A stretch of 64,000 bases of DNA from an uncultured Verrucomicrobiota bacterium (lineage in GTDB: Bacteria; Verrucomicrobiota; Verrucomicrobiia; Palsa-1439; CAZOTB01), in NCBI GenBank assembly GCA_964582645.1, contig CAZOTB010000001.1, positions 2,845-66,844 of the forward strand, written 5' to 3'. A program made the position numbers and the translations under genes. The notes below the pieces were generated by a model. The model saw nothing but the letters and a program-made list of their open reading frames with translations. It did no database searches and had not been told where the DNA came from. Within the stretch, counting starts at the first letter, position 1. The number at the start of each line of letters is the position of its first letter. This document shows, in pieces, positions 1,572-59,436 of the stretch.

Positions 1572-1651
1572 CGCGGTGCGACCTCATTAACCATTTACTT
1601 GGATCGTTGTCACTTGATTTCCTCCCGCGCGTTGGGAACACTGGCGGCGGC

Positions 1652-2683: not shown

Positions 2684-2795
2684 CGGAAGGTGCAACAATG
2701 GAAGACGGGAAGAATCAGGGCACGATGCTCGCGTCCATTCAAGGTGCGAATCCGGCCTTCCACCCTTCCATGCTTCCACCCTTCCATCACCTCCC

Positions 2796-5651: not shown

Positions 5652-5682
5652 TACATCGAATCATAAGTTCGTAGCAGGTTTT

Positions 5683-6381: not shown

Positions 6382-7051
6382 TTGCTGCCACCAGCGGCGG
6401 CCAGCGCACCAGAAAGTCGCACGCCATCGGCGTGACCAGGTCTTCGCCCGCCCAGTCGAGTGCCTGCGGATAGTAGGCTTTCAACGCCGCGATGAGCTGC
6501 TGCTTGCAGCCGGTGGCCTGATTGACCCGGCGGCGACGATGTTCGCACAACAGCCCGACCTGGCGCGCGACCACGGTGTCCGGCCGCCAGGGGCGCAGAT
6601 GCTCGCGATGGGCCACGAGCAACTCGTGCAGCAGGCGCGCGTCCGGCGGATCGTCCTTGGCGCCGCTGGGAGCGAACGCCTCGCGATAGCGTGTGGCGGT
6701 CATCGGGGCCACTGGATAGAGCACCAGGAAGTCGGCTTCCATCAGCTTGTGAATCAGACCGCCGCGGGATTGTTCCAGAGCGATGGCGACGGGTCGCCCG
6801 CCGAAGCGCGTGCGCAGCGTGGCGATGAACTCGGTGAGCGATTCGGCCGAGTGTGTGAGGGTGAACTCTTCGAGCGCGGCACTGCCGGCGACACTGAGGC
6901 AGACGGCGTGCTCCTGGTCGGCCCAGTCCATGCCGACGAACGCCGCCAGTGCGGCCGGGGGCGCGGGCGCCGAGGGACGCGGCGAGGGGGTTGGGTTTGG
7001 GGATTGCGTCATGGGTGTGTACTCCTTAAGGTTTGGGTTATGCGTTGCCAC
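6239..7051 (-). mobile_element. IS110-family transposase N-terminal (DEDD_Tnp_IS110-like) fragment; Transposase_20 C-terminal domain absent
   Basis: FVGMDWADQEHAVCL...RPVAIALEQSRGG...LVLYPVAPMTATRYREAFAPSGAKDDPPDARLLHELL...LRPWRPDTVVARQVGLLCEHRRRRVNQATGCKQQLIAALKAYYPQAL follows the IS110 N-domain pattern. Its 3' part (6239-6470) overlaps the IS630 fragment in another frame; the true junction is probably near 6380-6480. Confidence 0.6.
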
Positions 7052-7788: not shown

Positions 7789-10581
7789 ATGATCCAGCGT
7801 TTTCTTAAGACCAGCGCGATCTCCCTCTGTTTGCTGCTCGCAGCCACTCTCATGTGTCGCGGAGCAGACAACGAGGAGGACAAGATCCTTCTCAAGGTCA
7901 CCGGCCTCTGGGGCGGAAGCGTCACGCCGCGCAAGGATGCGCGCACGCCCTCCGACAAGGCCAGCGCCGAAATTCTCGACGCCTTCCTCAAGAAGTTCCC
8001 GCAATATGGTTTCCAGCCGACGCGGACGATCCGTTTGCCCGCGGGCAGCAAGGCGCAGGAATCGGCGTTGCTGATGGCGATGGCGGGACGCACCGCGGGC
8101 GACATCATCTACGTCAACTTCCGCGTGGTGGATAACTGGGTGCGGCAGAACTTCCTCGTCCCGCTCGATTCGTTCGTGATCGAGTACGCGGAGCAGGAAT
8201 GCAAGCGGCTCGGCATTGATTATCCCAAACCACTCACGCTCGACAAGGTGGACCCGGCATGGGTCGGCATCAACCCACAGACATGGGACACCATCTACCG
8301 CCCTGACACGAAGGGCAACTGGCACGTCTGGTCGTGGCCGTACTACGAGGTGGCCATGGCGATGTATTACCGCAAGGACGTGCTGCAGGAGAAGGCACCT
8401 GCGCTCAAGGCTGCCGGGCTGGAGGTGCGGCCGCCGCGCACCTGGGAAGAAGTCATCGAATATTGCAAGGCGCTCACCGACCCGACGAAGGGCGAGTTCG
8501 GTTTCCAAAACACCACGTACGCTGGCTGGTATTTTGCAGACCTGTTGTGGCAGGGCGGCGTCGAGATCGTCGAGCGCGATACGAATCTGCAATGGCACGT
8601 CACGTGGGATTCGCCCGGCACGATTGACACGGTCCGGTTCTGGCGGGAGCTGACCAACACCGAGGTGACGAAGGACGGGAAAACGAGTTTTGTCGCGATG
8701 GACTCCGCGCGTTCCGCCACGCGCATGGGTTTCGGCGAAGGCAAGGCGGCTTTCATGTGGGCGTACTCTTCCGAGTTGAGCCTCGGCGGTTATCAGAACC
8801 TCGACCCGGAGGTGCTGGGCGCGGTGCCGTTGCCGGCCGGTCCCGTGCAGACGACGGAGGGAAAATCGCCCGAGGAATTGCTGGCGAAATACCCGCACCC
8901 GAACAAGAAGGGCTGGATTCTCTTCCCCAACGGTCGCCAGGCGCCGGCGAAGTCGCTGGTGAACTTCGGCGACGGCTGGCGCATTCGCGGCAACGAAATC
9001 AATGCGGCCATGTGGGGCATCTGCTCGCTCTGCACCGATCCGAAACGCCAGCGCGCAGCGTGGGAGTGGCTGAAATTCCAGAACAGCGACGAAGCTCGGC
9101 GCATCCGCACCACCGTGTTGGTCGAGAACGGCAGCGCCATCAGTGTGCGTCCCGACCTGCTCAAGCGGTACGGGTTCGAGGAATACTACGAGCAGGTGCC
9201 GAAAGATTGGCGCGAGGCGAACGAGGACGTGTTCCGCACCGGCCGTCCCGAGCCGAACGGGAAAAACTGCCAGTACGTTTATGATTTCATCGAGATGCCG
9301 GCGCGCGATGCGGCGGAGTTCGCTTCCCTGCCGAATCGTCGCGCCCGGATGAACAATCCGATCGTCCGTGAATCCTGGCGCAAAGCGATGGGTGGCAACG
9401 ACGACGCACTGGTGGCCAAGATGCGTTCCGAGGGCGAGGTGAAGGAGTCCGACATCGCGTTGCTCAAGCAGGACACCGCGGAGATTCAGTCCAACGTCTT
9501 GCAGAGTCTCGAACGCGCCAAGCGCCGCATGCTCGATCAACTCCCCGAGGAGGAACTCTCGAAGTATCGCAAGTACGCCGTGCTCATCGTGATCGTGGTG
9601 ACGTGCATGTGCATCTTCGGTTTGTGGGCGATCCTCCGCTTTTACGGGAAGGATGCGAAAGGCCGAATGATCGAGCAGCCGCAGCCCTCCCGGGTGCATC
9701 TGACGGCGTGGTCGTTCATGGGGCTGGCGGTGTTGAGCGTGTTGGTCTGGAACTACTACCCGCTCGCGCGCGGCGCGGTCATTGCCTTCCAGAATTACCA
9801 GATCATGGGCGGCAGCGAGTTCGTCGGTCTCGACAACTTCGTCAAAGTTTTCATCGAACCGCTCTTCACCAAGGCGGTGATCAACACGCTCCTCTGGGTC
9901 GCGCTGCAACTGGGGCTGACGTTCTTCCCGCCGATCTTTCTCGCGATCATCCTGGACGAAATCCCCAAGGGGAAACTGTTCTTCCGCATCATCTTTTATC
10001 TGCCGGCGGTCATGAGCAGCCTGGTCGTTGCGTATCTCTGGCTGTGGATGTTCTCGCCGAACCCGGACGGCCTGCTGAACTCGCTTCTGATCAAAATGCA
10101 CCTGGTCAAACCGAGCGAACCGATGGCGTGGCTGACCCGGTCACCGATTCTGGCGATGATCTGTGTGATCATTCCCGGCATCTGGGCGGGCATCGGGCCG
10201 GGCTGCATCATCTACCTCGCGGCGCTCAAAAGCATTCCTGAGGATATCTACGAGGCGGCCGACCTGGACGGCGCAAGCACGTGGCGGAAAGTGTTCGGGA
10301 TCACGCTCCCGTACCTCAAACCGCTGGTGATCATCAATTTCGTCGGTGCGTTCATCGGCGCGTTCCGCAGTTGGGAGGGCATTTTCGTGATGACGGGCGG
10401 CGGTCCGAACGACGGCACCCATGTCATCGGCATGGAAGTCTGGTACAACGCGTTCGCCTATTTGCGTTTCGGCTACGCGACCGCCGTCGCCTGGATCATC
10501 GGCGCCGCGCTGGTGGGATTCACCGTGTATCAGTTGCGAATTTTGCGCAATGTCCGGTTCACAACAGCGAAGAGGGATTGA
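7789..10581 (+). CDS. ABC importer component: signal peptide and extracellular solute-binding (family-1-like) domain fused to a MalF-type inner-membrane permease
   Basis: ORF track, 930 aa. N-terminal signal MIQRFLKTSAISLCLLLAATLMC, ~550 aa SBP-like region, then a 6-TM permease with EAA motif IYEAADLDGASTWRKVFGITLPYLKP. Paralog of 15778..18186. Confidence 0.8.
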   Translation: MIQRFLKTSAISLCLLLAATLMCRGADNEEDKILLKVTGLWGGSVTPRKDARTPSDKASAEILDAFLKKFPQYGFQPTRTIRLPAGSKAQESALLMAMAGRTAGDIIYVNFRVVDNWVRQNFLVPLDSFVIEYAEQECKRLGIDYPKPLTLDKVDPAWVGINPQTWDTIYRPDTKGNWHVWSWPYYEVAMAMYYRKDVLQEKAPALKAAGLEVRPPRTWEEVIEYCKALTDPTKGEFGFQNTTYAGWYFADLLWQGGVEIVERDTNLQWHVTWDSPGTIDTVRFWRELTNTEVTKDGKTSFVAMDSARSATRMGFGEGKAAFMWAYSSELSLGGYQNLDPEVLGAVPLPAGPVQTTEGKSPEELLAKYPHPNKKGWILFPNGRQAPAKSLVNFGDGWRIRGNEINAAMWGICSLCTDPKRQRAAWEWLKFQNSDEARRIRTTVLVENGSAISVRPDLLKRYGFEEYYEQVPKDWREANEDVFRTGRPEPNGKNCQYVYDFIEMPARDAAEFASLPNRRARMNNPIVRESWRKAMGGNDDALVAKMRSEGEVKESDIALLKQDTAEIQSNVLQSLERAKRRMLDQLPEEELSKYRKYAVLIVIVVTCMCIFGLWAILRFYGKDAKGRMIEQPQPSRVHLTAWSFMGLAVLSVLVWNYYPLARGAVIAFQNYQIMGGSEFVGLDNFVKVFIEPLFTKAVINTLLWVALQLGLTFFPPIFLAIILDEIPKGKLFFRIIFYLPAVMSSLVVAYLWLWMFSPNPDGLLNSLLIKMHLVKPSEPMAWLTRSPILAMICVIIPGIWAGIGPGCIIYLAALKSIPEDIYEAADLDGASTWRKVFGITLPYLKPLVIINFVGAFIGAFRSWEGIFVMTGGGPNDGTHVIGMEVWYNAFAYLRFGYATAVAWIIGAALVGFTVYQLRILRNVRFTTAKRD

Positions 10582-10587
10582 GAATGT

Positions 10588-10690
10588 TGTTACTCGTTAT
10601 TGGTTATTGGTTATTGGTTATTGGGAAAGCAAAAGGCCAATCACGAAGAACCAATAACAAATAACGGATAACTAATAACCCATAACCAAC
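10588..10690. repeat. Palindromic element, family B (GTTATTGG repeats), 'empty' copy between the two permease genes
   Basis: Left arm GTTACTCGTTATTGGTTATTGGTTATTGGG, right arm CCAATAACAAATAACGGATAACTAATAACCCATAACCAAC (imperfect inverted repeat); loop ~25 nt. Confidence 0.6.
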
Positions 10691-10691
10691 A

Positions 10692-12614
10692 GTGCCCGTA
10701 ATCAGTAAAGTCGGACGTTCATCGCCGGGAGTGAGGCTCACCCTCACTCTCATGTACCTGCTTTTGGTGGCCGGGTCGGTCACCATGATCGGGCCGTTCC
10801 TGATGATGCTCTCGTCCTCCATCAGCAGCGAGGCGGACATCTCCGACTATCGTATCGTCCCGAGGTTTCTGACCGAGGAGGATGCGTTGTTCGCCCGGTT
10901 CCTCAACGACAAGTACAATGGCAACCTTTGGTCCATCAAAGACCTCTTCGGCTACGACCTTTCCCGCGTGGACGTGCGCACGCGCACCGTTTCCGAAATG
11001 GTAAATGAACTCCGGCTCCGCGATCAGGTGGCCGACCCCGGCCGGCGAGCACTCGTGAAGGAGTACGGTGAGTTTCTGGCCACCGGCATCCCGGACGATC
11101 TGTACATGACCGGCTTCATCCTGCGCGGCGGATTGATCGGCCCCGTCAACAAACTCTATCAGGAGTGGCTGAAGGCGAAGTTCGGTACCGTCGAGGCGAT
11201 GAACAAGGCGTACGACGACCAATACACCTATTGGGCGGAGGTGGGGGTGCCGCCTGAGGCAGTCTATGCGCGGGATTGGGCGCCCGTGTACCACAAGCGG
11301 TACCGCGACTTCCTCGATTTCAAGAAGACCCTGCCGGCCTGGCAGCGTGTGCCCTACGAAGGGGAACGCAAATGGGTCGAGCATCTGAAACTTGTCAGCG
11401 ACGCCAACATCGAGAAGCTCAATGCGTTGCTCGGCACGAAGTACAAGGATTTCTACGACGTACCAATGCCCCTTGCCGCACCGTCCGACCCCAAGGTCCT
11501 CAAACTCTGGGAAGACCTGGTGCGCCGCAAGTGGCCGCTGCGGTTGATCGTGCCGAACGAGGCGGGTGTGCGCGAGTACCGGACGTTCCTCGAAGCGCGC
11601 CGAAAAACCATCGCCAAGGTCAACGAAGCCTACGGCACGAGTTACACGAGCTTCGACGAGGTGCCGTGGCCGCGCGACGACATGTTCGAGGGAATGCGCC
11701 AGAGCGACTTCCTCGATTTCCTCAAGAGCGAAACCGCGGGCGCGCCCCGTCTGACGATCCAGAACGTGACGTTGCGCACGACCGGCGGCGAGTTCCACAA
11801 ATGGCTGCAGGCCCGCCACGGCGGTTCGCTCGACGGGATCAACAAGGCGCTCGGGACGAAATTCGCCAGCCTCGATGAGATCGGCCTTCCGCAGGCAGCG
11901 TGGGAGTGGACTCTCGTGATGTCGGACACCGGCCACTGGCGCTGGGAGTTCGTGAAGAGCAACTACTTCGAGGTGGTCTCGTTCATCCTCACCAAGGGGC
12001 GCGCCCTGAGCAACACCGTCATCTTTATTCTTCTTTCCATCCTCATCCATCTCACGATCAACCCACTCTGCGCATATGCATTGTCGCGGTTCAACATTTC
12101 CTACTCGTACAAGGTGCTGCTCTTCCTGCTCGCGACGATGGCGTTCCCTGGAGAAGTGACCATGATCCCGAACTTCCTCCTCCTCCGCGATTTCGGGATG
12201 CTCAACACCTTCGCCGCGCTGATCCTCCCCGGCATGGCCAACGGATTCAGCATCTTCATCCTCAAAGGATTCTTCGACACGCTCCCGAAGGAGCTGTACG
12301 AAGCCGCGCAACTCGACGGCGCCGGCGAGTTGCGGATGTTCTACCAGATCACCGTGCCGCTGTGTCAGCCCGTGTTCGCGTACACCGCGTTGATCACGTT
12401 CACCGGCGCGTACGGCGCGTTCCTGTTCGCGTTGACCGTGTGCCAGGACCCGAACATGTGGACGATCATGGTCTGGTTGTACGACCTGAACGCCACGTCC
12501 CCCGAGCACATCAAAGTCGCCGCCCTGGTGATTGCGATGATCCCGACGCTGATTGTGTTCGTGACATGTCAGCGAGTGATCATGCGGGGCATCGTGCTGC
12601 CTCAGATGAATTAG
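10692..12614 (+). CDS. ABC importer MalG-type permease with ~400 aa periplasmic loop between TM1 and TM2 carrying four internal repeats
   Basis: ORF track, 640 aa. TM1 TLTLMYLLLVAGSVTMIGPFLMML; loop repeats such as VNEAYGTSYTSFDEVPWP and INKALGTKFASLDEIGLP; C-terminal permease EAA motif LYEAAQLDGAGELRMFYQITVPL. Paralog of 18719..20590. Confidence 0.8.
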   Translation: MPVISKVGRSSPGVRLTLTLMYLLLVAGSVTMIGPFLMMLSSSISSEADISDYRIVPRFLTEEDALFARFLNDKYNGNLWSIKDLFGYDLSRVDVRTRTVSEMVNELRLRDQVADPGRRALVKEYGEFLATGIPDDLYMTGFILRGGLIGPVNKLYQEWLKAKFGTVEAMNKAYDDQYTYWAEVGVPPEAVYARDWAPVYHKRYRDFLDFKKTLPAWQRVPYEGERKWVEHLKLVSDANIEKLNALLGTKYKDFYDVPMPLAAPSDPKVLKLWEDLVRRKWPLRLIVPNEAGVREYRTFLEARRKTIAKVNEAYGTSYTSFDEVPWPRDDMFEGMRQSDFLDFLKSETAGAPRLTIQNVTLRTTGGEFHKWLQARHGGSLDGINKALGTKFASLDEIGLPQAAWEWTLVMSDTGHWRWEFVKSNYFEVVSFILTKGRALSNTVIFILLSILIHLTINPLCAYALSRFNISYSYKVLLFLLATMAFPGEVTMIPNFLLLRDFGMLNTFAALILPGMANGFSIFILKGFFDTLPKELYEAAQLDGAGELRMFYQITVPLCQPVFAYTALITFTGAYGAFLFALTVCQDPNMWTIMVWLYDLNATSPEHIKVAALVIAMIPTLIVFVTCQRVIMRGIVLPQMN

Positions 12615-12728
12615 GTGGGCGCTCCGGGACCGATCTGGAGCGACGCGGGAACGTGTGCAGATTCCATTGCAGCCGGCGCGGGCTGCATCTCCGTTGGCGA
12701 CCACCCTTCACGGCACACGCAACCCGGC

Positions 12729-12798
12729 AGGCTGAAGGCTGTACTCCAAACGCGAGCTGTTCGAAGGCTCTGGTTCGGAGTACAAGCTTCAGCTTGGT
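12729..12798. repeat. REP-like extragenic palindrome, family A
   Basis: GCTGAAGGCTGTACTCCAAACGC ... GGTTCGGAGTACAAGCTTCAGCTTGG are inverted arms; downstream of the permease gene. Confidence 0.55.
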
Positions 12799-13598
12799 CA
12801 GATGCACCCAAATCTTGATTGGCCGGGATTTGGGCCTGGCTGGCTGGCAGGAAGTGGTTACCGTTTACCGACGAATCGACGCCGTGCCGCCAAAGCCAAA
12901 TTCTGGCGCGCCGTCATGTGAATGTGGTTAAGCATCGAGCCTCGTTTTGGCTGGTCCTGGTCGTGGCGATCGCGCTGCTCTTTCTGGTCTCCACCGCATT
13001 ATGTTTCGTGATCCTGACGGAGATGGTTGACCGGTGCTTCTGGGCCGACTTTTCGGTTGCGCCCGTTTGGTTTCTTCCACTGTGTTACGTGGTATCGCCA
13101 TCGGTGGGAATCGTCGTCACCTTCATCCTTGGGTGGAACGTGAGAAAATGAAGGCTAGACCAAACGGTTTGATGCAGGGTCGCACGAGGATCGGAAGATG
13201 CCCGTCATGCCGCCGACCATCGAATTGAGACGACCGGCAGTCGCCCTTCGCTGCGACGGTCCGTGGCCAACCAGCGGAACAAATGGAAGAGCCGAACCCA
13301 TATGACAAGTTGATCGTTGGACTATCCGTGTTGGCCTGCCTCGGCATCGGTGGTGGTCTCTCGCAGAGGAGTGCTGGCATTTCTCCGAGGGGTTGTGGTG
13401 GTTGTCGTGCATGCATGGTACTTCAGCTTACGCCATGGTATTCCCGAGATGGGCGGGCTCTGCTAGGTCTCTGTTGGAGGCATTGTGGCTCTTGGGCTTT
13501 TCTACATCAAGAAGTGGATAGTCGAATTCCGAGAGAGCCGCACGTGCGAGAGGCCGAACAAAACGTCTGAGGCAGACCGGTAGGAGGATTGAGGAGTA

Positions 13599-13886
13599 AT
13601 GGATAAGAAGGAAGCACAGAAAATTCTGGAGGCGCAGTTGCGCCGGTACCGCAGCCGGTCGTACGCTGGACTGGTGGCGCTGGTCGAAGCCAAGGAGGTT
13701 AAGACGCTTCAAGTCATAGGAGCCACCGGCGCAGAGTACCAACTGGAGGTCCAATTCTTCTGGGATGCCAAACCTAACGGTGACATCAGAGTCGCCGCGT
13801 CCGTTGACGATGGCAGCCTGCGCGCCTACTTCCCCTTGACGGACAGCTTCATCCTCAGTCCACAGGGGGCTTTTATCGGCGAATAG
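13599..13886 (+). CDS. Hypothetical protein (95 aa) in lower-GC islet
   Basis: Strong SD GGAGGATTGAGGAG 6 nt before the ATG; coding-like composition; no recognisable family. Confidence 0.45.
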   Translation: MDKKEAQKILEAQLRRYRSRSYAGLVALVEAKEVKTLQVIGATGAEYQLEVQFFWDAKPNGDIRVAASVDDGSLRAYFPLTDSFILSPQGAFIGE

Positions 13887-13957
13887 CCAAATGGTCCCTC
13901 TTCAACCAGTGAAGCAAACTTGCGCTCGTGGCTTCGTCGTTGGTCTGCCTCGGGGAT

Positions 13958-14389
13958 ATGGCCGCCATGCGTCGCGACTTTGAGATTATCAACGGCATCT
14001 ACCTGTCGCAGCCACCACACGTGCTCGACCTGCACAACGACTTCGATTTCCACGATTTGCGCTACTCGATACGTGACCGGATTCTCTCGCTGCACTGGCG
14101 GCGTTCCAATCGCAAGTCGGTTCCTGCTAACACCCCGGCGTCGGTGTGCGTGGCGTTTCGCGAGGTCAGCGAGTTCCGGTTCCATCCTCGCGATCCGAAA
14201 CAGCCTTTCACCGAGGATGACTGCATGAACACGTTTGGATTCTGGACGGACGAGGACTGGGCAGATGGCGTCATCGTCCCTGACCGAAACCAGACGCCTG
14301 AACCGAGTTGGCTTACAGCGGTCGATTTCATGTCGGGCGCAATCATCTTGGTGCAAACAGCGTCCGCCCATGCCCGAATCGAGTCATGA
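13958..14389 (+). CDS. Hypothetical protein (~143 aa) in lower-GC islet
   Basis: Frame of ORF 13928..14389; the internal ATG at 13958 (MAAMRRDFEIING...) is preferred. Acidic Trp-rich C-terminal half (FGFWTDEDWADG). Family unknown. Confidence 0.4.
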   Translation: MAAMRRDFEIINGIYLSQPPHVLDLHNDFDFHDLRYSIRDRILSLHWRRSNRKSVPANTPASVCVAFREVSEFRFHPRDPKQPFTEDDCMNTFGFWTDEDWADGVIVPDRNQTPEPSWLTAVDFMSGAIILVQTASAHARIES

Positions 14390-14418
14390 TGCCCGGCACG
14401 CTCCCGCCAGAACCAGAG

Positions 14419-15657
14419 CTATTTCGATCCCGGCGGGCCCTCCAGCAGGAAATCTTCCCAAGGCCGGCTCCGGACTCCGGCGGCCTGCGCCACCGCCTCC
14501 CGCGCACGGTCGCAAACGACCAATGGTTGAAACCGTGGATTCCGCCGGCAGAATTCCAGGAGCGCGGAAAGGTCGCGAGCCGAGTACGCGCCGGTCTTGA
14601 CTTCGATGGCCCAATTCCCCCAGGAGCCTTCGGTGACAAAGTCCAGTTCGAGCGGTTCCTCGCGCCAATAGTGGACCTGCTGGCTGCAGTTCCACGCCAG
14701 CGCGCCACAGGCGTTTTCGACCCATCGTCCCCAGCGCTCCGCATCACGATCGGGAGACGGCAGGACATTCGTGGTCGCTCCCAGGAACGCGTTGTTCAGC
14801 GCGATCAACTTGGGCGGAGCGGCGCGTTGCCGGAGCATCTTGCCGGAGTACTTGCGCAGTGCGACCGCCAGACAAGCTTCTTCCAGCAACTCCAAATAAT
14901 GTGCCACCGTCTCCAGTGCGCCGCTGGAACCGAGTTGGCCGCAGATTTTCTGAAGCGAAATGATTTCCGCAGGGTGTCCCGTGACAATGGCAAATACTTG
15001 CCGAAGCAGCGCCGGCTTCCGAATCGCTTCCACCGCCAGCATGTCCCGGCCGATCGCCGGCTCGATGATGCTGTCTCGCACGTAGCTGCGCCAGCGGATG
15101 AGGTCGTCCAGCAGCGGCACCGCCCCGGGATAGCTTCCCTGCCCGACGGTCCGGCGCGCGGCAACCAGCGGATCGAGTCGAAAACAACGCACCACTTCCG
15201 AAGCCGGCCAATGCAGCAACCGCAATCTCTCAAATCGGCCTGCCATGGTCTCACGGCTGCCGTGACCAAGCCCAAGCGCTGAGGACCCGGTGGCGACCAC
15301 ATGAAGCGGCAGCCGCGCGCGTTTCAGTTGGTCCATCTTGCTCTTCAGCAAGCGCTGCCAGTTGTCGAGGTACTGGATTTCATCGAGCAACAACATTGCG
15401 GAACCGCCTGCCGCCAACTGCTGAGCCCGATGCCACAGGTTTTCCCACCATCCGGCCAATGCGGCCTCGGGAGTGTCTGCCGCTGCGTATAGGGCGCGTT
15501 CCCCTTTCTCGCTGGCCAGTGCCAGCAGCAACGTGGTTTTTCCAACCTGACGCGGCCCGGTCAGTAGTTGCGCGCGGTGGGACGGTTCGGCGTTCAGTCT
15601 CTTCCGCAGTTCGGCGAGCACGGTGTCATAGGCGTGCGGCCCGATGAATTCGTCCAT
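14419..15657 (-). CDS. AAA+ superfamily ATPase with C-terminal DUF4143-like domain
   Basis: Walker A GPRQVGKTTLL, Walker B LLLDEIQ, C-terminal WAIEVKTGAY; architecture as in the AAA_14 + DUF4143 predicted-ATPase family. Confidence 0.8.
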   Translation of the reverse strand: MDEFIGPHAYDTVLAELRKRLNAEPSHRAQLLTGPRQVGKTTLLLALASEKGERALYAAADTPEAALAGWWENLWHRAQQLAAGGSAMLLLDEIQYLDNWQRLLKSKMDQLKRARLPLHVVATGSSALGLGHGSRETMAGRFERLRLLHWPASEVVRCFRLDPLVAARRTVGQGSYPGAVPLLDDLIRWRSYVRDSIIEPAIGRDMLAVEAIRKPALLRQVFAIVTGHPAEIISLQKICGQLGSSGALETVAHYLELLEEACLAVALRKYSGKMLRQRAAPPKLIALNNAFLGATTNVLPSPDRDAERWGRWVENACGALAWNCSQQVHYWREEPLELDFVTEGSWGNWAIEVKTGAYSARDLSALLEFCRRNPRFQPLVVCDRAREAVAQAAGVRSRPWEDFLLEGPPGSK

Positions 15658-15777
15658 GGTCGAATCATTATTCGATTACGTCCGAAAATCAATCTCGGTC
15701 GCCGAAATCGTTTCCATCAGGCTGAAAATGGCTCGACAGGCAGTGTCGGGTTCCTAACAGTGTTGCGAGACAGTCTG

Positions 15778-18186
15778 ATGATTTTGCACAAACGATTCGC
15801 CGCCTTTTCTATCCTCGCCGTGAGCTTGTGGTTGCAGTCAAGCCCGTCTGGCGCCGCCCCCGCTCCGACCGACAAAGTGATAGTCCGGATCAGCGGCATG
15901 CCGAGCAAACGGGCCAACTCGCCGCGCGAGATCGCCAGCTACCGGGTCGTCGAACGATTCCAGCAATTGTATCCCGACATCGAAATCCGGGGCACGACCG
16001 CGCTGGAAATCCAGAACATCGGCAGCGAAGCGGCGACGCTCATGTCCATCGCGGGCGGAACGGCGCCGGACATTCTCGTCGTCAACTTCCGCCAGTCCGA
16101 CACCTACCTCAGCGAAGGTTTCCTGGCGCCGCTGGATGAATACATCATGGCGATGGACCCGGCCGAACGCGAAGATCGCATTCCTGCCCCGGTTCGTCCG
16201 GTCGTGTACCGCGAAGGTCCCGACGGACAGAAACATTACTGGATGATCCCGCAATACATCGGCGCCAAGGTGCTGATGTATCGCCGCGATCTCCTCGCAG
16301 CGGCGGGACTCGATCCCGATCGTCCGCCGAAGGACTGGGACGAACTGCGGGAGTACGCGCGGAAGGTGGCCGATCCGTCGCGCGGCATTTATGGGCTCGG
16401 TTTCTACTCGGGCATTCACGCGTCGTGGTCCATGTACACGTACCTTGTCAGCACGGGCGCGCAGGCGATGAAGCAACTGCCCGATGGCCAATGGCGGGCG
16501 GCATTCGATTCCGACGAGGCGGTCACGGCGTATGAGTTCGTGGATGATCTGCTGAAAGAGCAGGTCGAGAAAGCCGGCAAGTCCGGCCCCATGGCGTACC
16601 GCGGGGCGGACTTCGGTCAGAAATGGACGGACGGGAAAGTGGCGATGCAGTTCTCGACGCTGCAGAGCAAGGAACTCGGCGATATCAATCCGCAGTTGAT
16701 GGGCATCGCGCCAATCCCGAAGGGGCCGACGGGCATCGCGAGCTCCGAAGTGAATTGTCCGATGTACGCGATCTTTGCCGGGCAGAAGGACAAACGCGTT
16801 CGCGACGCGGCGTGGAAGTACATCTGGTTCACCGACAGCGTGGAAGCACGGAGGATTTTCGTGCAGACAATGGTCGAGCAGGGCGCCGCGCGCACGTTGC
16901 GTCCGAAGCTCTTGCGGCAATTTGGATTCTCGGAATTGGCCGACCTGGCGATTCCCGGCCTCGAGGAAGCTTACGAAACCGCTCTCGCCCAGGGCACGCC
17001 CGAGCCGTACGGCAAAAACTGCCAGTTCGTCTATGCGTACATGACCAAGCCCATGGACGCGGCCTACTACTTCGATTTCAAGGGCATGACCCGGCAACAG
17101 AAGCGCGCGAAGATCAAGGAATTCCTCCGCAAGGCCGTGGACGAAGCCAACGAACAGATGATCGGTATCGTGCCCGAACCTGTCCGCAAGAAGCGCAATG
17201 GCATCGCGTGGGTCGTCGCCGTCGTCGTCCTCCTGAGTTTCGTCCTGCTGTTGCGACAGGTCTTTCGCTGGATGAGCCAGGGATTCGCGCCCTCGACGGA
17301 GCCGGCTTCGGGCTACAAGAATCGCATGGCGGTCGCGCTGATCGCGCCCGCGCTGCTTCTGATCCTGCTCTGGCAGTACTATCCGCTCGTGCGCGGCTCG
17401 CTGATGGCGTTTCAGGATTACAGCATCATGGGCGGGTCACCGTGGATCGGCATTGATAACTTCGCGGACGTCCTGTTCGACAAGAATTTCTGGCTCGCGT
17501 TGAAGAACGCGGTGTATTTCTGCGCGTTGTGGATGCTGATGGGTTTCCTGCCGCCGATGGCGTTGGCGATCATCCTGCAGGAAATCCCGCTCGGCAAACT
17601 GCTGTTCCGAATTCTCTTCTACCTCCCACATCTCGTGTCCGGCATCGTCATCTATTTCATGTGGCGCGGGTTTTACGACGTCTCGCCCGACGGCATCCTG
17701 AACCGCATCCTGGCGGTATTCAACATCCCCGCGCAGAAGTGGCTCGACGACCCGAACATCGCGATGATCTGCGTCGTGTTTCCGATTGCCTGGTCGCACC
17801 TCGGCGCCGGGTGCATCATCTACCTCGCCGCGCTCAAGGGCATCCCGGATGAACTGTACGAGGCAGCCGACATTGACGGCGCATCGTTCTTTCAAAAGTT
17901 GCGCTTCATCGTCTTTTCGTATCTCAAACCGCTGATCGTGATCAACGCGGTCGGCGCCACGATCTTCGGCTTCAAATCCGCCGACGCAGTTCTTGCGATG
18001 ACGGGCGGAGGTCCAAACGGCGCGACACAGGTCATCGGGTACGAAATCTGGCAGCGTTCGTTCATGTTCCTGCATTTCAGTCAGGCCACCGCGATGGCGT
18101 GGATTCTGGGAGTGTTGTTGCTCTCGTTCACGGCGTATCAACTCCGCATTTTGAACAAGGTGGAGTTTCGCACAACCGGCAAGTGA
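15778..18186 (+). CDS. ABC importer component: solute-binding domain fused to a MalF-type permease (paralog of 7789..10581)
   Basis: Within ORF 15568..18186. Start at ATG 15778 (MILHKRFAAFSILAVSLWLQSSPSGAAPA, signal peptide), because the longer ORF overlaps the convergent ATPase gene. EAA motif LYEAADIDGASFFQKLRFIVFSYLKP. Confidence 0.8.
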   Translation: MILHKRFAAFSILAVSLWLQSSPSGAAPAPTDKVIVRISGMPSKRANSPREIASYRVVERFQQLYPDIEIRGTTALEIQNIGSEAATLMSIAGGTAPDILVVNFRQSDTYLSEGFLAPLDEYIMAMDPAEREDRIPAPVRPVVYREGPDGQKHYWMIPQYIGAKVLMYRRDLLAAAGLDPDRPPKDWDELREYARKVADPSRGIYGLGFYSGIHASWSMYTYLVSTGAQAMKQLPDGQWRAAFDSDEAVTAYEFVDDLLKEQVEKAGKSGPMAYRGADFGQKWTDGKVAMQFSTLQSKELGDINPQLMGIAPIPKGPTGIASSEVNCPMYAIFAGQKDKRVRDAAWKYIWFTDSVEARRIFVQTMVEQGAARTLRPKLLRQFGFSELADLAIPGLEEAYETALAQGTPEPYGKNCQFVYAYMTKPMDAAYYFDFKGMTRQQKRAKIKEFLRKAVDEANEQMIGIVPEPVRKKRNGIAWVVAVVVLLSFVLLLRQVFRWMSQGFAPSTEPASGYKNRMAVALIAPALLLILLWQYYPLVRGSLMAFQDYSIMGGSPWIGIDNFADVLFDKNFWLALKNAVYFCALWMLMGFLPPMALAIILQEIPLGKLLFRILFYLPHLVSGIVIYFMWRGFYDVSPDGILNRILAVFNIPAQKWLDDPNIAMICVVFPIAWSHLGAGCIIYLAALKGIPDELYEAADIDGASFFQKLRFIVFSYLKPLIVINAVGATIFGFKSADAVLAMTGGGPNGATQVIGYEIWQRSFMFLHFSQATAMAWILGVLLLSFTAYQLRILNKVEFRTTGK

Positions 18187-18187
18187 G

Positions 18188-18714
18188 GGTTATTGGTTAT
18201 CAGTTATTCGTTACTGACTGACCGGAGGCAAAGATATGAGCGAGAAGATCATGACGCTCGAGGATTTGAAATGCTGGCAGGCTTGTCGGGCCTTGCGATT
18301 GTTTGTGACCCGCGAAGTCGTACCTCTCTTGCCGAGGGCGGAACGATATCGCTTGATTGATCAGCTCGTCCGTGCGGCGCGTTCGACGACCTCCAATATC
18401 GCGGAAGGCTACGGACGATTTCATTATCTCGACAACGCCAAGTTCTGTAGCAACTCGCGCGGCTCCTGCTGGGAAGTGCTCGACCATTTGATCGCAGGTC
18501 GCGACGAGGGATTGATTTCCGAGGAAATGCTCGCCAAGGGCCGCCAGTTGGTCGGCGACGCGGTCAAGTTACTCAACGGCTACATGAACTACCTCAAAGC
18601 CGCCGGCGATCGCCCTCAAGGCATCGCCCGCGAAGCCCAATCCGAGTATTACGTAACTCACGTGACGAACGCCCAGCCGGAGAACGAGTAACCAATAACC
18701 AATAACCAATAACG
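18188..18714. mobile_element. Candidate MITE-like family-B palindromic element carrying a passenger gene
   Basis: Left arm GGTTATTGGTTATCAGTTATTCGTTACTGA (18188-18216) and right arm CCAATAACCAATAACCAATAACG (18690-18714) are inverted repeats of the same family as 10588..10690 and 59349..59436. They bracket the four-helix-bundle gene exactly at the position where the paralogous locus has only an empty palindrome. Confidence 0.45.
18236..18691 (+). CDS. Four-helix-bundle protein (TIGR02436 / '23S rRNA intervening-sequence protein' family)
   Basis: 151 aa; the NIAEGYGR motif, size and helical character are typical of this family. Confidence 0.75.
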   Translation: MSEKIMTLEDLKCWQACRALRLFVTREVVPLLPRAERYRLIDQLVRAARSTTSNIAEGYGRFHYLDNAKFCSNSRGSCWEVLDHLIAGRDEGLISEEMLAKGRQLVGDAVKLLNGYMNYLKAAGDRPQGIAREAQSEYYVTHVTNAQPENE

Positions 18715-18718
18715 ATCC

Positions 18719-20590
18719 GTGCCGATTCTAAGCCCCATCCAAAAACGTTCCCCCGCCGGTCGGGTGTTGGTCGCGGCGATGTACGTCATCTGCATCGTCG
18801 GGTCGGCGTGGATGGTTTATCCGTTCCTGCTCATGGTCAGCGGCTCGGTCAAGAGCGAGGTGGATATGCGCAAGTTCGACATCTTCCCGCGCTACGTCCA
18901 CGACGACGTCATCTTGTTCCGCAAATTCGAGGAGCAACGCTACGGCGGACAGCTCGATGCGTTCACGGCTGCCTGCCGGTATTCGGACACCAACGCGCGG
19001 CCGCTGTCGTCCTTCGAGTTCCTGCCAACCCCAACTGATCCGCCGACGGCCGTGCTCGCGGATTGGAATGAATTCACCCGGGACTGCCGGTCATGGCCGC
19101 GCCACTACCTGCAGCTCGGCCACAATTTCGGCTACAAGACGTTCCCCGAGGTCACGCTTGAATACCAGCACCGGCTCTGGGAAGCGTTCCCCGATGTTCC
19201 GAAGATTCAACTCGCCACCGCGCCACAACGTCTCCTGATCCAGGAAAAATGGCAGACGCGCGCCTACCAATCCGTGCAAGGTCCGTATGCGCCAATCTAC
19301 GACAAACTGCGCAGCGACCTGCCCGACCGCTATTTCATTCCCACCGCGATCGAGGGCACGTTCGTCACCACGCTCCTGCAATCCCGGTACGGCACGGGCA
19401 CCAACGGAGTCGCCAAGCTGAACAAGAAATGGGGAACGAACTTCGCCAGCGTGTTCGACGCCTCGCTCAACGTCACGCCGCCGACACAAGCCGGGCAACG
19501 CGACGACTGGTGGGAGTTCGTGCGCACCAGTCTCTCGGCGCGGTTCATCCGGCTGGATGACGCGTCGCTGCTGAAGTTGCGGGAATTTCTCCGGGAGAAA
19601 TACAAGGACATCGCCAAGCTGAACACGATCTACGGCGCTGCGTATCCCGATTGGAGCGCGATCCACTTCGAGCCGACCCGCGCGCCGATCGCCGCCTACG
19701 CCGACGTCGAGGGATTCGTGCAGACGCTCGCATCGCCGGAAGGCCTTTCGCTCGACGGTCCCGAGTTTCGCTGGCGTGAGTTTGTGAAGACGAAGTACGG
19801 CGATCTCGCGGCGTTCAATCAAGCGCATGGGACAGACTACACGTCATTCGATCACGTCAAGATGCCCCTGCTCGCCGCCGATTGGGCGATCATGAAAGCC
19901 AACCGCTGGCCAATCGTCCGCGAGTACCTGACCCGGAACTACCGGGTGGTGTGGGATTACCTGTCGGTGCAGGGCCGCGCCGTGCAGAACACGATCATCT
20001 TTGTGGTGCTCAACATTGTGACCGCGCTGATCGTCAACCCGCTCGCTGCGTACGCGTTGTCCCGCTTCCAACCGCGGTGGAGTTACAAAGCGTTGTTTCT
20101 CCTGATGGCAACGATGGCGTTCCCGGGCGAAGTGACGCAGATCCCCGCGTTCCTCCTGCTGCGCGACCTTGGTTTCCTCAACACGTTCGCCGCGCTGGTC
20201 ATCCCCGCCGCCGCCAACGGGTACTCGATCTTCCTGCTCAAAGGTTTCTTCGACAGCCTGCCGAAGGACCTCTACGAATCCGCCACGCTCGACGGGGCCG
20301 GGGAGTTTCGCGTGTTCTTCACCATCACCATGCCGCTCTCCGCGCCGATCCTTGCCGTGATCGCGCTCGGGGCGTTCACCAGCGCGTATGGCGCGTTCAT
20401 GTTCGCACTGCTGGTCTGCCAGAAGCAGACAATGTGGACGATCATGGTCTATATCTACCAGTTGCAGCAGCTCTACAACGTTCCGATCGTCTTCGCCTCG
20501 CTTGTGATCGCCGCCATCCCGACGCTGATCGTCTTTACGCTGTGCCAGAACGTAATCATGCGCGGGATTGTGGTGCCGGTGGAGAAATAG
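18719..20590 (+). CDS. ABC importer MalG-type permease with large repeat-containing periplasmic loop (paralog of 10692..12614)
   Basis: ORF track, 623 aa. TM1 AAMYVICIVGSAWMVYPFLLMV; loop repeats LNTIYGAAYPDW and FNQAHGTDYTSFDHVKMP; EAA motif LYESATLDGAGEFRVFFTITMPL. Confidence 0.8.
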   Translation: MPILSPIQKRSPAGRVLVAAMYVICIVGSAWMVYPFLLMVSGSVKSEVDMRKFDIFPRYVHDDVILFRKFEEQRYGGQLDAFTAACRYSDTNARPLSSFEFLPTPTDPPTAVLADWNEFTRDCRSWPRHYLQLGHNFGYKTFPEVTLEYQHRLWEAFPDVPKIQLATAPQRLLIQEKWQTRAYQSVQGPYAPIYDKLRSDLPDRYFIPTAIEGTFVTTLLQSRYGTGTNGVAKLNKKWGTNFASVFDASLNVTPPTQAGQRDDWWEFVRTSLSARFIRLDDASLLKLREFLREKYKDIAKLNTIYGAAYPDWSAIHFEPTRAPIAAYADVEGFVQTLASPEGLSLDGPEFRWREFVKTKYGDLAAFNQAHGTDYTSFDHVKMPLLAADWAIMKANRWPIVREYLTRNYRVVWDYLSVQGRAVQNTIIFVVLNIVTALIVNPLAAYALSRFQPRWSYKALFLLMATMAFPGEVTQIPAFLLLRDLGFLNTFAALVIPAAANGYSIFLLKGFFDSLPKDLYESATLDGAGEFRVFFTITMPLSAPILAVIALGAFTSAYGAFMFALLVCQKQTMWTIMVYIYQLQQLYNVPIVFASLVIAAIPTLIVFTLCQNVIMRGIVVPVEK

Positions 20591-20699: not shown

Positions 20700-21827
20700 A
20701 TGAAGCGCTGGCTCATCGTCCTTCTGATCCTTGCCATCGCGGGTGGGACCTGGTTTGGCGTCCATCGGCTGCGTACCGCCGCGCTCACATCAAAGGAGAA
20801 GGTTACGCCCACGAGCACGGCGGAGATTCGCACCATTCAGGAAACCGTCAGCATCGTTGGCGAAATCGCCTCGGCGCTTTCCATTGAGATCAAATCCGAG
20901 GTCAGCGGACAGATCACGCAGGTCCGCGTCGGCAACGGCTCCGCCGTCACCAACGGACAGGTGCTGCTCACGCTCGACCGGTCGCAGCTTGAAAGCCAGC
21001 GTCAGGAAATCGAAGCCGCCATCCAGTCGGCGTCGTTGCGGATGGAGAAAGCGAAGAACGATGCCGACCGGCTCGCGCCGTTGCACAAGAGTGGGCTGGC
21101 GACGGACAAGGATTTCACCAACAGCCGACTCGACCAAGCCATCGCCGAGAACGACCTCAAGCTGCAGCGGGCGAAACTCCAGACGCTGGAACAGCAGCTT
21201 TCCAAGACGGTGATCTACGCGCCCTGCGACGGCATGATCATCCAGTGCGACGCCCGCCCGGGCCAGGTCATCGTGGGGGCGTCGTCCGTGTCGCAGGGCA
21301 CCGTGTTGATGAAGATCGTCCAACTCGACCGCCTGCTGGTGAAGAGCAACGTCAACGAAGTGGACGCGCTCAAGCTGACCAAAGCCATGAAAGCTGCCAT
21401 CACGTTTGATTCGATCCCGGGCTTGAACCTCGAAGGCACGGTCGTGAGCGTCTCGCCCTCCGCGCAACAAACTGACGGCAAGGACGGCAGCAAAGAATCG
21501 CTCAAGCAGTTTCCCGTCGAGATCGCCTGTGCGCAGACCGACCCGCGCATCAAGCTCGGCATCAGCGCCAACGTCAAGATTCCCATCGCCGAAGTCAAAG
21601 ACGTCGTCGCGGTCTCGGTCGCCGCGGTGTTCACCGACACCACCAACAAGATCGCGTTTGTGAAGAATGGCGCCGCCTTCGCGAAACGCCCGGTCACCGT
21701 GGGCTTGAGCGACGCGCTGCATGTCGAGATCAAGAATGGTCTCGCCAAGGGTGATGTCGTTGCCACCGCCTATCCGCCCGAGTTTCAGCCCGCGAAGGAA
21801 AAGAAGAAGGACGACGATGATTGGTGA
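20700..21827 (+). CDS. Efflux-transporter periplasmic adaptor subunit (HlyD/MacA family membrane-fusion protein)
   Basis: N-terminal TM, coiled-coil region (LESQRQEIEAAIQSASLRMEKAKNDADRL...), beta-barrel/lipoyl-like segments; directly upstream of the FtsX permease and ABC ATPase. Confidence 0.8.
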   Translation: MKRWLIVLLILAIAGGTWFGVHRLRTAALTSKEKVTPTSTAEIRTIQETVSIVGEIASALSIEIKSEVSGQITQVRVGNGSAVTNGQVLLTLDRSQLESQRQEIEAAIQSASLRMEKAKNDADRLAPLHKSGLATDKDFTNSRLDQAIAENDLKLQRAKLQTLEQQLSKTVIYAPCDGMIIQCDARPGQVIVGASSVSQGTVLMKIVQLDRLLVKSNVNEVDALKLTKAMKAAITFDSIPGLNLEGTVVSVSPSAQQTDGKDGSKESLKQFPVEIACAQTDPRIKLGISANVKIPIAEVKDVVAVSVAAVFTDTTNKIAFVKNGAAFAKRPVTVGLSDALHVEIKNGLAKGDVVATAYPPEFQPAKEKKKDDDDW

Positions 21828-21829
21828 TC

Positions 21830-21916
21830 CAAGTTTGTAGTCGAGCGCTTCAGCGCGGTCTTGATGACTCGCATACCAATGTGCAGACCGCGCTGAAGCG
21901 CTCTACTACAAACTGT
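21830..21916. repeat. Perfect 29 bp inverted repeat hairpin between adaptor and permease genes
   Basis: AAGTTTGTAGTCGAGCGCTTCAGCGCGGTC ... GACCGCGCTGAAGCGCTCTACTACAAACT with a 25 nt loop; it shares the GCTTCAGC core with family-A palindromes. Confidence 0.55.
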
Positions 21917-21921
21917 CCCGT

Positions 21922-23157
21922 ATGAAAACCCTGCACGGTATTCTCAATGGACTCCGCCAGATCGGGGCGCACAAAGTTCGCTCTGCGCTCACCGTGCTGG
22001 GGATCGTGCTGGGCGTGGCGGCCACGGTGGCAATGATCGGATTGATCCAGGGCATGTTCGCCAACTGGCAACGCTGGATCGTGATGCAGGGCGGCATCGA
22101 GAAAATCGCGATCCTGAAACAAGCGCCGCCCGTCGCACAGAAACATCTCGCCAGCCTGTCGCCCGGTCGCACGTTGCGCGACGCCGACACGATCCGCCAG
22201 ACCTGCCCGCTCGTTACCCACGTCTCACCCGAGGTGGATCTGCCGAACCCGGTCCTCGAACGCGGCGGAAAACAGTGTCGCGTCACAGTGCAAGGAGCAA
22301 CACGCGACATCCTTGCCGTCAACGCCCACGAACTCGGTCACGGGCGATTTCTGAGCGATCTCGACGTCGAGCAATTCAAGCGCACCGCGGTGATCGGCAC
22401 GACGGTGCGGGAGGAATTGTTCCGCAGGGACGAAGACCCGATCGGCCAGCAGATTCGGATCAACGGCCAGCCGTTCACCGTCGTCGGTGTGCTCGCGCAT
22501 TACGAGCAGATGAGCGGCAAACGAAACATCCTGGAATTCCGAAACAAGATCGCGTTCATCCCGGTCAGCACGGCGCTCAAGACCTTCATGGGCAACGACC
22601 AGCTCACCTGGCTCAACGTCCGCGTCGCCAGCGCCGCGCATCTTGACGACGTGGTCGGCCAGTTGACGCGGACGTTGTTGCACACCCACCGCGGCATCGA
22701 GGATTTCAAGATTGATACCAAGGAGGAAATGCTCGCGCGCTTCGCCAGCGTCCGGCAGTCGTACATGTTCACGCTCGGCGGGATTGCCGGCATCTCGCTC
22801 CTGGTCGGCGGCATCGGCATCATGAACGTCATGCTCGCCTCGTTGAACGAACGCGTGCGTGAGATCGGCATCCGCAAAGCGGTCGGTGCGCGGAATTACG
22901 ACCTGTTCATTCAGTTTCTCTGCGAAGCTGTAACGCTGGCGGTGCTGGGCGGATTGCTCGGAATCATCGCGGGCACGTCGCTCGTGTACGCGCTGCAAAC
23001 CGCCGCCGTCCTTGGCGGCTCCGGCGCGCCGGAGTTCTCGGCGGGAGCAATGGTGATTGGATTTATATTCAGCGTGGTCGTCGGCATCGTCTCCGGCATC
23101 TATCCCGCCATCCGGGCCGCCCGGTTGGATCCGATCGTGGCGTTGCGATACGAATGA
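21922..23157 (+). CDS. ABC transporter permease, MacB/FtsX-like (periplasmic domain plus 4 TM)
   Basis: 411 aa. N-terminal TM ALTVLGIVLGVAATVAMIGLI, large periplasmic domain, C-terminal FtsX-like TMs. Confidence 0.85.
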   Translation: MKTLHGILNGLRQIGAHKVRSALTVLGIVLGVAATVAMIGLIQGMFANWQRWIVMQGGIEKIAILKQAPPVAQKHLASLSPGRTLRDADTIRQTCPLVTHVSPEVDLPNPVLERGGKQCRVTVQGATRDILAVNAHELGHGRFLSDLDVEQFKRTAVIGTTVREELFRRDEDPIGQQIRINGQPFTVVGVLAHYEQMSGKRNILEFRNKIAFIPVSTALKTFMGNDQLTWLNVRVASAAHLDDVVGQLTRTLLHTHRGIEDFKIDTKEEMLARFASVRQSYMFTLGGIAGISLLVGGIGIMNVMLASLNERVREIGIRKAVGARNYDLFIQFLCEAVTLAVLGGLLGIIAGTSLVYALQTAAVLGGSGAPEFSAGAMVIGFIFSVVVGIVSGIYPAIRAARLDPIVALRYE

Positions 23158-23161
23158 ACGT

Positions 23162-57614: not shown

Positions 57615-57623
57615 GGCAGTCGG

Positions 57624-59335: not shown

Positions 59336-59348
59336 GGATACGGAGTTG

Positions 59349-59436
59349 CTGGTTATTCGTTGTTGGTTATTGGTTGTTCGCAAACGACACCACCGGCCCG
59401 ACGCCCATTCACGAGTAACCAATAACCGAGAACCAA
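59349..59436. repeat. Palindromic element, family B (GTTATTGG), empty copy
   Basis: GGTTATTCGTTGTTGGTTATTGGTTGTTCG ... GAGTAACCAATAACCGAGAACCAAC are inverted arms; located between the htrA 3' end and the gldA start. Confidence 0.55.

Follow-up and report, generated by a model that had tools for sequence, protein, structure and literature searches.

How would a bacterial importer work whose receptor is fused to one permease subunit, whose other permease subunit carries a giant periplasmic loop and whose ATPase is not encoded nearby? This question is raised by two gene pairs, here called module A (genes A1 and A2) and module B (genes B1 and B2), found in a 64,000-nucleotide stretch of DNA from an uncultured Verrucomicrobiota bacterium (contig CAZOTB010000001.1, positions 2,845 to 66,844). 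The whole stretch is called the window, and all coordinates refer to it. We think that each module is probably the membrane half of a type I ATP-binding cassette (ABC) importer of the CUT1 type for carbohydrate, in which the loop would serve as a dock for a tethered receptor. The two features that carry this reading, the fusion and the loop, form a two-gene unit that is conserved across at least five phyla (Verrucomicrobiota, Kiritimatiellia, Lentisphaerae, Planctomycetota and Armatimonadota).

A solute-binding domain tethered to the MalF-like permease

The four genes are intact and lie on the forward strand, at the positions given in a preliminary description of the locus, which had taken them for the membrane modules of ABC importers. 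This assignment holds, as Pfam finds the permease domain BPD_transp_1 in four of four proteins. The same description had proposed that a solute-binding protein (SBP) is fused to a permease, and this is borne out as well: in both A1 and B1 a single polypeptide combines SBP_bac_1/SBP_bac_8 matches (SBP_bac_1 E-values of 2e-18 and 1e-25, respectively) with a C-terminal BPD_transp_1 domain, the assignment as SBP being one of sequence profiles. In A2 and B2, BPD_transp_1 is confined to the last ~200 residues. The translations of all four permeases contain the EAA coupling motif, which reads YEAADLDGAS in A1, YEAAQLDGAG in A2, and YEAADIDGAS and YESATLDGAG in module B. The N-terminus of A2, MPVISKVGR, is kept in the aligned homologues. 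This favours a start at the GTG at 10692 over the JGI gene call for A2 (P0001), which is 20 residues shorter than the open reading frame (ORF) from this GTG.

The topology of the four proteins was obtained from a Kyte-Doolittle hydropathy scan. A1 begins with a signal-like segment (residues 5–23), followed by a long hydrophilic stretch, one extra transmembrane (TM) helix and the six-TM permease core. B1 has the same layout, with its extra helix at residues 474–492 ahead of the six-TM core; its N-terminal signal-like segment is seen in the translation only and falls below the threshold of the scan. Since a periplasmic SBP needs one membrane crossing to reach the cytoplasmic start of the permease core, the extra helix would reconcile the fusion with the expected topology, by taking the chain back from the periplasm into the cytoplasm ahead of a core with its N-terminus inside. 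The receptor is thus, as judged from sequence, not a free periplasmic protein; it is predicted to be exported by the N-terminal signal sequence and tethered, via a linker and the extra TM helix, to the N-terminus of the MalF-like permease.

Among proteins of known structure, the sequence matches of the A1 binding domain are MalE3, SmoF and AbnE, and those closest to its transmembrane domain (TMD) are SugA, AlgM1 and MalF, with UgpA also near. A1 and B1 are nearest to SugA, UgpA and MalF, and A2 and B2 to UgpE, MalG and SugB. The best partial matches in NCBIfam (UgpA/UgpE, GlcT/GlcU and MalF/MalG) are all sub-threshold; with scores of 79–94 bits, far under the equivalog cut-offs of 297–335, neither module is orthologous to LpqY-SugABC or UgpB-AEC. 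Adjacent genes for a MalF-like and a MalG-like subunit, EAA motifs and an SBP of carbohydrate type are what is found in CUT1 systems. A1/A2 and B1/B2 are accordingly classified, from their sequences, as subunits of CUT1-type type I importers that are not orthologs of any characterised system.

A tandem repeat domain in the MalG-like permease

In A2 and B2, the first TM helix (TM1) lies at about residues 17–43 and is preceded by K/R residues, and the next one starts at about residue 438 in A2 and 421 in B2. The position of TM1 and the residues before it place the intervening insert of ~390 residues in the periplasm, in good agreement with the loop of ~400 residues between TM1 and TM2 that had been described. 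In A2 this loop is a ~360-residue alpha/beta repeat domain with 4.5 units of ~70 residues each. An alignment of 42 family sequences was cut into segments and the slices were compared profile to profile with hhalign; units 1–4 of A2 match each other pairwise with probabilities of 98–99.4% and E-values of 1e-14 to 4e-21. A hidden Markov model (HMM) of the unit finds three clear units in B2, where the first one is degenerate, and 2–8 units per family member, most often 4–5. The preliminary description had recognised four copies of a motif of ~20 residues. All four instances that it quoted are present in A2, but the motif covers just the most conserved core within the C-terminal half of the true unit, which occurs in four copies and a half copy. 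The similarity between the repeats is far above chance, and they are conserved in the paralog and in homologues of several phyla.

Modelling with AlphaFold2 gives each unit as a helix, a three-residue strand and two further helices. The full-length model of A2 has a predicted local distance difference test score (pLDDT) of 85, with values above 90 over most of the loop. Foldseek matches to this model are confined to the TMD (about residues 430–640), where SugB, MalG and AlgM2 align over ~205–230 residues. Since only the TMD was matched, a loop-only model was built; it is a confident repeat domain (pLDDT 88.4, predicted TM-score 0.85). Foldseek finds no PDB structure at E ≤ 1e-3 for the loop-only model; the best hits are glycosidases, with TM-scores of at most 0.15. 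Neither Pfam nor NCBIfam has a model that covers the whole loop domain. The lack of a Foldseek match implies that the domain as a whole has a fold not represented among solved structures.

One part of the unit does have relatives, even if the repeat loop had at first been considered unrecognisable. Pfam aligns residues 294–345 of A2 with positions 152–207 of the 376 positions of Glyco_hydro_42 (E 3e-12; 47 bits, above the gathering threshold), and B2 has a short match to the same positions. The conserved C-terminal half of the unit (~37 residues, Y..FL...YG.I..LN.AWGT.Y.SF.ev.lP) is the part that matches enzymes in the PDB. When the unit profile was searched against PDB sequences with hmmsearch, it matched a beta-amylase of glycoside hydrolase family 14 (GH14; 3voc, 1.4e-9), a GH42 enzyme (1kwg, 4e-9), a beta-1,2-glucosyltransferase (7vkx, 4e-8), GH50 agarases (4bq4, 1e-5) and also a GH167 enzyme. 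The matched proteins are glycosidases with a triosephosphate isomerase (TIM) barrel, and the hairpin occurs once in each. In the GH42 structure 1KWG, the segment follows the beta-4 strand and the acid/base residue, and we take it to be the alpha-4 region of the barrel. The repeat unit shares, as the sequence profiles show, a helix hairpin with TIM-barrel glycosidases of clan GH-A. The setting is different: in GH42, GH14 and GH50 enzymes the hairpin stands once, within the barrel, whereas in the loop it is joined by an extra helix and a short strand and is repeated 4–5 times without a barrel or catalytic residues. One loop permease (P0012) bears the NCBI name 'beta-galactosidase'; this is a misnomer, which arises because the GH42-like hairpin of 50 residues matches Pfam.

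Outside the loop, a periplasmic segment before the last TM helix of A2 (residues 584–599; 12441–12488) carries the pattern CQ...MWT.MVW.Y, which is invariant in 42 of 42 aligned sequences from several phyla. Its position resembles that of the P3 'scoop' loop of MalG and, by this analogy, the segment may be a conserved gate.

The gene pair has a broad distribution. A word-indexed search with A2 returned more than 1,391 relatives; among those listed with a source name are Verrucomicrobia, Armatimonadota and Planctomycetota, and most are ~625 residues long. A HMMER search of 1.84 billion representatives of 50%-identity clusters with the loop profile found 971 clusters at E ≤ 1e-3, 459 at 1e-10 and 186 at 1e-30, and the match starts nearly always at residue ~44–45, straight after TM1. 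With the full-length alignment as query, at least 512 loci were found in GTDB species genomes, including those of Kiritimatiellia, Lentisphaerae/Victivallales (the cultured Victivallis vadensis DSM 14823, locus L072, being one source), Phycisphaerae, Fimbriimonadaceae and Firestonebacteria. Another member of the family (L070) is found in a complete genome, that of Planctomycetes bacterium syqfu (CP087563.1). We scanned 85 non-redundant loop-permease loci with HMMs from the families of the window; six could not be assessed, as they lie at contig ends. The SBP-MalF fusion is directly upstream of the loop permease in 71 of the 79 assessable loci, which makes the fusion and the loop a conserved pair. 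Other assessable loci include two with the SBP and MalF parts in different frames and one with the reverse gene order. Among the carbohydrate importers described so far the fusion may be a rarity, as had been suggested, but within loop-permease loci it is the rule.

Table 1. Features of the two modules and of the DNA between their genes (residues are those of the named protein)
Feature	Coordinates	Strand	Residues	Description
A1	7789..10581	+	930 in total	Signal peptide, solute-binding domain, extra TM helix, MalF-like permease
A1 periplasmic solute-binding domain	7876..9288	+	~30-500	Followed by linker up to residue 597
A1 SBP_bac_1			86-371	Pfam
A1 extra TM helix	9580..9636	+	598-616	Strongest hydrophobic segment of the scan (2.93)
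A1 six-TM core	9694..10536	+	636-916	MalF/UgpA/SugA-like
A1 BPD_transp_1			726-909	Pfam
A2	10692..12614	+	640 in total	GTG start; MalG/UgpE/SugB-like permease, giant periplasmic loop after TM1
A2 periplasmic loop	10821..12002	+	44-437	Alpha/beta repeat domain ~44-402, then amphipathic helices to TM2
A2 half unit U0	10878..10985	+	~63-98	C-terminal hairpin only; hhalign probability 94-97.6% against units 1-4
A2 repeat unit 1	11043..11258	+	118-189	Unit HMM E 3.6e-16; hhalign probability 98-99%
A2 repeat unit 2	11283..11474	+	198-261	Unit HMM E 3.1e-18
A2 repeat unit 3	11481..11675	+	264-328	Unit HMM E 1.8e-20; bears partial Glyco_hydro_42 match
A2 repeat unit 4	11688..11894	+	333-401	Unit HMM E 8e-15
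A2 MalG-like TM2-TM6 core	12003..12611	+		EAA motif YEAAQLDGAG; invariant periplasmic CQ...MWT.MVW.Y
A2 BPD_transp_1			470-632	Pfam
AAA_14 + DUF4143 ATPase gene	14419..15657	-		Spacer between modules, not a transporter part; Pfam
B1	15778..18186	+	802 in total	SBP, extra TM helix and MalF-like permease fused; A1 paralog
23S_rRNA_IVP four-helix-bundle gene	18236..18691	+	151 in total	Between B1 and B2; Pfam E 6e-23
B2	18719..20590	+	623 in total	GTG start; loop-bearing MalG-like permease, A2 paralog
B2 repeat units 2-4	19277..19870	+	187-251, 255-317, 325-384	Unit HMM E 1.8e-11, 1.2e-18, 9.7e-19

Proposed function and competing explanations

The maltose importer of E. coli, MalFGK2-MalE, is a suitable reference for discussing how such a module could work. 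It is a type I, CUT1 system with likewise a MalF-like/MalG-like TMD heterodimer, EAA motifs and a sugar-type SBP, and its MalK-type ATPase with an OB/TOBE domain has a counterpart among the relatives of the window modules. The P2 loop of MalF is a large periplasmic domain that holds the binding protein. In contrast to the maltose system, where the receptor is free, the receptor is fused in the window modules and the ATPase gene lies outside the operon. Moreover, P2 comprises ~180 residues between TM3 and TM4 of MalF, whereas here ~360 residues of alpha/beta repeats are inserted between TM1 and TM2 of the MalG-like subunit, with no fold match in the PDB. In the mechanism that we propose, the SBP would be exported by its signal sequence and held on the MalF-like permease by the linker and the extra TM helix, and the permease pair would be powered by a MalK/MsmK-type ATPase dimer from elsewhere in the genome. 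By analogy, the repeat domain would lie above the translocator on its MalG side and serve as a dock or cradle, placing the tethered binding domain on the pore, and it would thus do the job of the P2 loop with an unrelated fold. The substrates would be oligosaccharides freed by neighbouring glycosidases, and the specificity would come from the divergent SBP domains. We favour the docking role because the fusion and the loop co-occur, because the loop sits on the subunit without the receptor tether and because loop length correlates modestly with the length of receptor plus linker.

The motor would come from outside the modules. Many CUT1 permease operons have no ATPase gene of their own and are served by one MalK-like ATPase encoded elsewhere (MsmK/MsiK), and most loci of the loop-permease family share this layout, having no neighbouring ATPase gene either. 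The only two ABC ATPases of the window are a MacB-associated one (~23057–23854) and one of the DrrA/ABC-2 type (58373–59422, reverse strand). In two metagenome-assembled genomes of Kiritimatiellaeota (L038 and L041), a gene for 366–370 residues with ABC_tran, OB_MalK and TOBE_2 domains starts within a few bases after the loop permease. These MalK-type genes support a motor of the MalK/MsmK type with a gene that usually lies elsewhere in the genome, as had been presumed at the outset, and modules A and B would be driven by a dimer of this kind. The two loci (L038, 5052–11033; L041, ~5604–6713) also show what a complete operon looks like, with fusion, loop permease and MalK-type ATPase; in the former, the ATPase gene is followed by GH-like and F5/8-type-C genes.

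The proposed substrates are suggested by the relatives. Module A orthologs stand by a GH78 rhamnosidase, an Armatimonadota locus has a GH38 gene and a pectate-lyase-like gene, and in Victivallis vadensis a 1,427-residue DUF4838/GH67N protein is encoded directly upstream of the module. This context points to glycans as the likely substrates.

Several observations weigh against a docked, glycan-importing module. No MalK-type ATPase is encoded within the 64 kb of the window, and the energisation proposed here is read from relatives; the absence of a cognate ATPase nearby had already been noticed. Transposases, an AAA ATPase and a MacB system neighbour the modules in the window; there are no glycosidases among them. 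The correlation between loop length and SBP-plus-linker length is of modest strength (Spearman 0.43, p 2e-4, n=71) and uncorrected for phylogeny. Finally, the fusion-loop pairing is strong but not absolute: in four loci (L016, L027, L050 and L057) the loop permease has no fused partner detected nearby, and one Armatimonadota locus (L001) has an additional, lone SBP-permease fusion. The latter (13337–15643, reverse strand; 768 residues) lies beside the GH38 gene and near a canonical pair, without a loop permease of its own, so that alternative receptor subunits may share one loop-bearing partner.

The main rival of docking is that the loop is a glycan-capturing domain, similar to a carbohydrate-binding module (CBM), which would feed oligo- or polysaccharide to the tethered receptor or the pore instead of contacting a protein. 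In favour of this, the hairpin occurs elsewhere only in glycoside hydrolases that act on galactans, starch and agarose, conserved aromatic residues abound in the units, the number of units varies between family members as in tandem binding modules, and the gene neighbourhoods are glycan-related. However, from what is generally known of GH42 structures, the glycosidase hairpin is the structural alpha-4 region and is not known as an independent sugar-binding module, the conserved aromatics are at positions typical of a hydrophobic core, and neither a CBM family in Pfam nor a structural match to any CBM in Foldseek was obtained. We consider glycan capture unlikely.

A more distant alternative is that the modules are tied to the adjacent exporter (HlyD-MacB-ATPase, 20700–23854, forward strand) and take part in an envelope- or secretion-related cycle, not in nutrient uptake. 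A trio of adaptor, ATPase and MacB also follows the module in a Planctomycetota locus (L005, 12296–16226), and half-transporters with ABC_membrane and ABC_tran domains lie downstream of the loop permease at 25–58 nucleotides in L023 and L063 and at 1.3 kb in L021. Against this, no exporter is found near the orthologs of module B (L080, L086) or of module A (L007, L008), MacB systems are very common in these phyla, and the TMD fold and the EAA motifs are those of type I importers. With orthologous loci devoid of it, HlyD-MacB was mostly rejected as a part of the system; the recurrence of exporters after the importer module is probably a coincidence, and we regard this link as very improbable.

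That the loop is a glycosidase, be it active or relict, as the name of P0012 and the above-threshold Glyco_hydro_42 match would have it, is effectively refuted: the match covers a small part of the profile, the hairpin is repeated four times and not set in a barrel, GH structures are not significantly similar to the loop model, and Pfam detects neither Glyco_hydro_42M, the trimerisation domain, nor the C-terminal domain of GH42 beta-galactosidases. Equally hard to credit is that the modules are decaying, functionless orphans, as might be thought from the missing ATPase, the transposase genes upstream, the AAA_14/DUF4143 gene between the modules and the 23S_rRNA_IVP gene inside module B, since all four ORFs are full length relative to their homologues, the invariant residues are kept and the two-gene layout without ATPase is the norm in other genomes.

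Docking by the repeat domain is our preferred explanation, and it is useful to set the proposed importer beside other known transporters. LpqY-SugABC of mycobacteria and UgpB-AEC of E. coli, which both TMDs match best in sequence and structure, have a separate SBP (lipoprotein or free) and no giant loop, unlike the window modules. In GlnPQ and OpuA, a substrate-binding domain is covalently joined to the TMD, as in A1 and B1. These are amino-acid or compatible-solute systems, whereas A1 and B1 have an SBP_bac_1 domain of carbohydrate type, an additional TM helix and a partner with a repeat loop. To our knowledge, receptor fusions have been confined to amino-acid and osmolyte families and to mostly monoderm bacteria. 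Fusions of this kind are known in general (PMC3971661), the reviewed receptor-fused examples being of the GlnPQ and OpuA type (PMC3971661, PMC8025302), and the binding domains linked to the TMD in GlnPQ belong to cluster F (PMC8025302). Instead of cluster F domains (SBP_bac_3/OpuAC) on a homodimeric TMD, the window modules have SBP_bac_1/SBP_bac_8 on a MalF-like/MalG-like heterodimer. In the literature we found no description of SBP-fused CUT1 systems or of the loop domain in the Planctomycetes-Verrucomicrobia-Chlamydiae (PVC) bacteria or Armatimonadota. The machine is a recognisable CUT1 importer; its fixed combination of a tethered sugar receptor and a novel repeat domain is undescribed and phylogenetically broad.

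A bolder view, which we put forward tentatively and hold to be possible rather than probable, is that these modules belong to an architectural class of their own among type I ABC importers, a self-contained receptor-translocator in which the tethered SBP and a new, tandem-amplified fold are mutually dependent, and that this class is a major route of glycan uptake in PVC bacteria and Armatimonadota. If so, the fold would have arisen by tandem amplification of one helix-strand-helix-helix unit, with a hairpin whose source may be the beta4-alpha4 region of clan GH-A TIM-barrel glycosidases; docking would be guided or gated by the repeat domain, and alternative SBP-permease subunits would possibly share one loop partner. 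In soils, sediments and guts, the phyla concerned are important in the breakdown of polysaccharides. The loop-permease family shows that CUT1 importers, too, took up tethering, and in diderm phyla. Tethering combined with a large partner domain without known fold offers a structural target for learning how a tethered receptor is positioned on its translocator, and the loop is a clear case of a new domain with a repeat unit that has a fragment in common with an enzyme barrel. A practical outcome is that a recurring mis-annotation ('beta-galactosidase', in at least one loop permease) is flagged and that a profile has been defined for recognising the family.

Paralogy of the modules and their neighbourhood

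The two modules had been described as ~50–55% identical products of a tandem duplication. Pairwise alignment gives lower values: A1 and B1 are 50% identical in the TMD and 27% in the SBP, and A2 and B2 are 37% identical overall. With ~42% identity between A2 and its Armatimonadota homologues, A and B are about as diverged as relatives in different phyla. Furthermore, each has orthologs of its own. Those of module A (68–80% identity) are found in other Verrucomicrobiota, singly, by the GH78 rhamnosidase and sugar-metabolism genes, and those of module B (L080 and L086; 63–66% for B1, 61–62% for B2) are also lone pairs. Such separate, single-occurring orthologs at 61–80% identity speak against a recent tandem duplication as the origin of the adjacency. 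The best explanation is that A and B separated long ago, as paralogs that differ in specificity, and came to lie side by side. Divergence is much faster in the binding domains than in the permease cores, which fits a specificity set by the receptor.

The pairs A1-A2 and B1-B2 stand as two-gene modules, with the qualification that module B is interrupted by a 23S_rRNA_IVP gene overlooked in the preliminary description. This gene is absent from L080 and L086, which have no room for it between their module-B genes, and it was apparently inserted recently, without damage to the genes on either side. The spacer between the modules (12615–15777) had been regarded as a foreign-looking islet. Compositional foreignness was rejected, as its GC content of 0.56–0.63 against ~0.60 for the window gives no signal, and the AAA_14/DUF4143 gene is its only clear gene. 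A weak ParB_N-like ORF (13826–14371, reverse strand) and several small ORFs without Pfam match were also seen in it. Directly upstream of module A are DDE_3 and IS110-family transposase genes (5683–7051, reverse strand), and their position suggests that the adjacency of A and B arose by rearrangement. A scan for promoters and terminators between 7000 and 21000 gave nothing exceeding the shuffled expectation.

Two further loci of the window lie apart from the modules. At 56073–59422 (reverse strand), the DrrA-type ABC ATPase is encoded with an ABC-2 permease and an ABC_transp_aux/DUF7088 protein in a GldA/F/G-like cluster, which is unrelated to the modules. At 1607–3905 (forward strand), a PTA_PTB ORF (1607–2683) is followed by an overlapping ORF with AAA_26 and DRTGG domains (2547–3905). 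As a rule, one Pta protein holds these domains, in the opposite order, and the pair of ORFs may be a split or rearranged pta.

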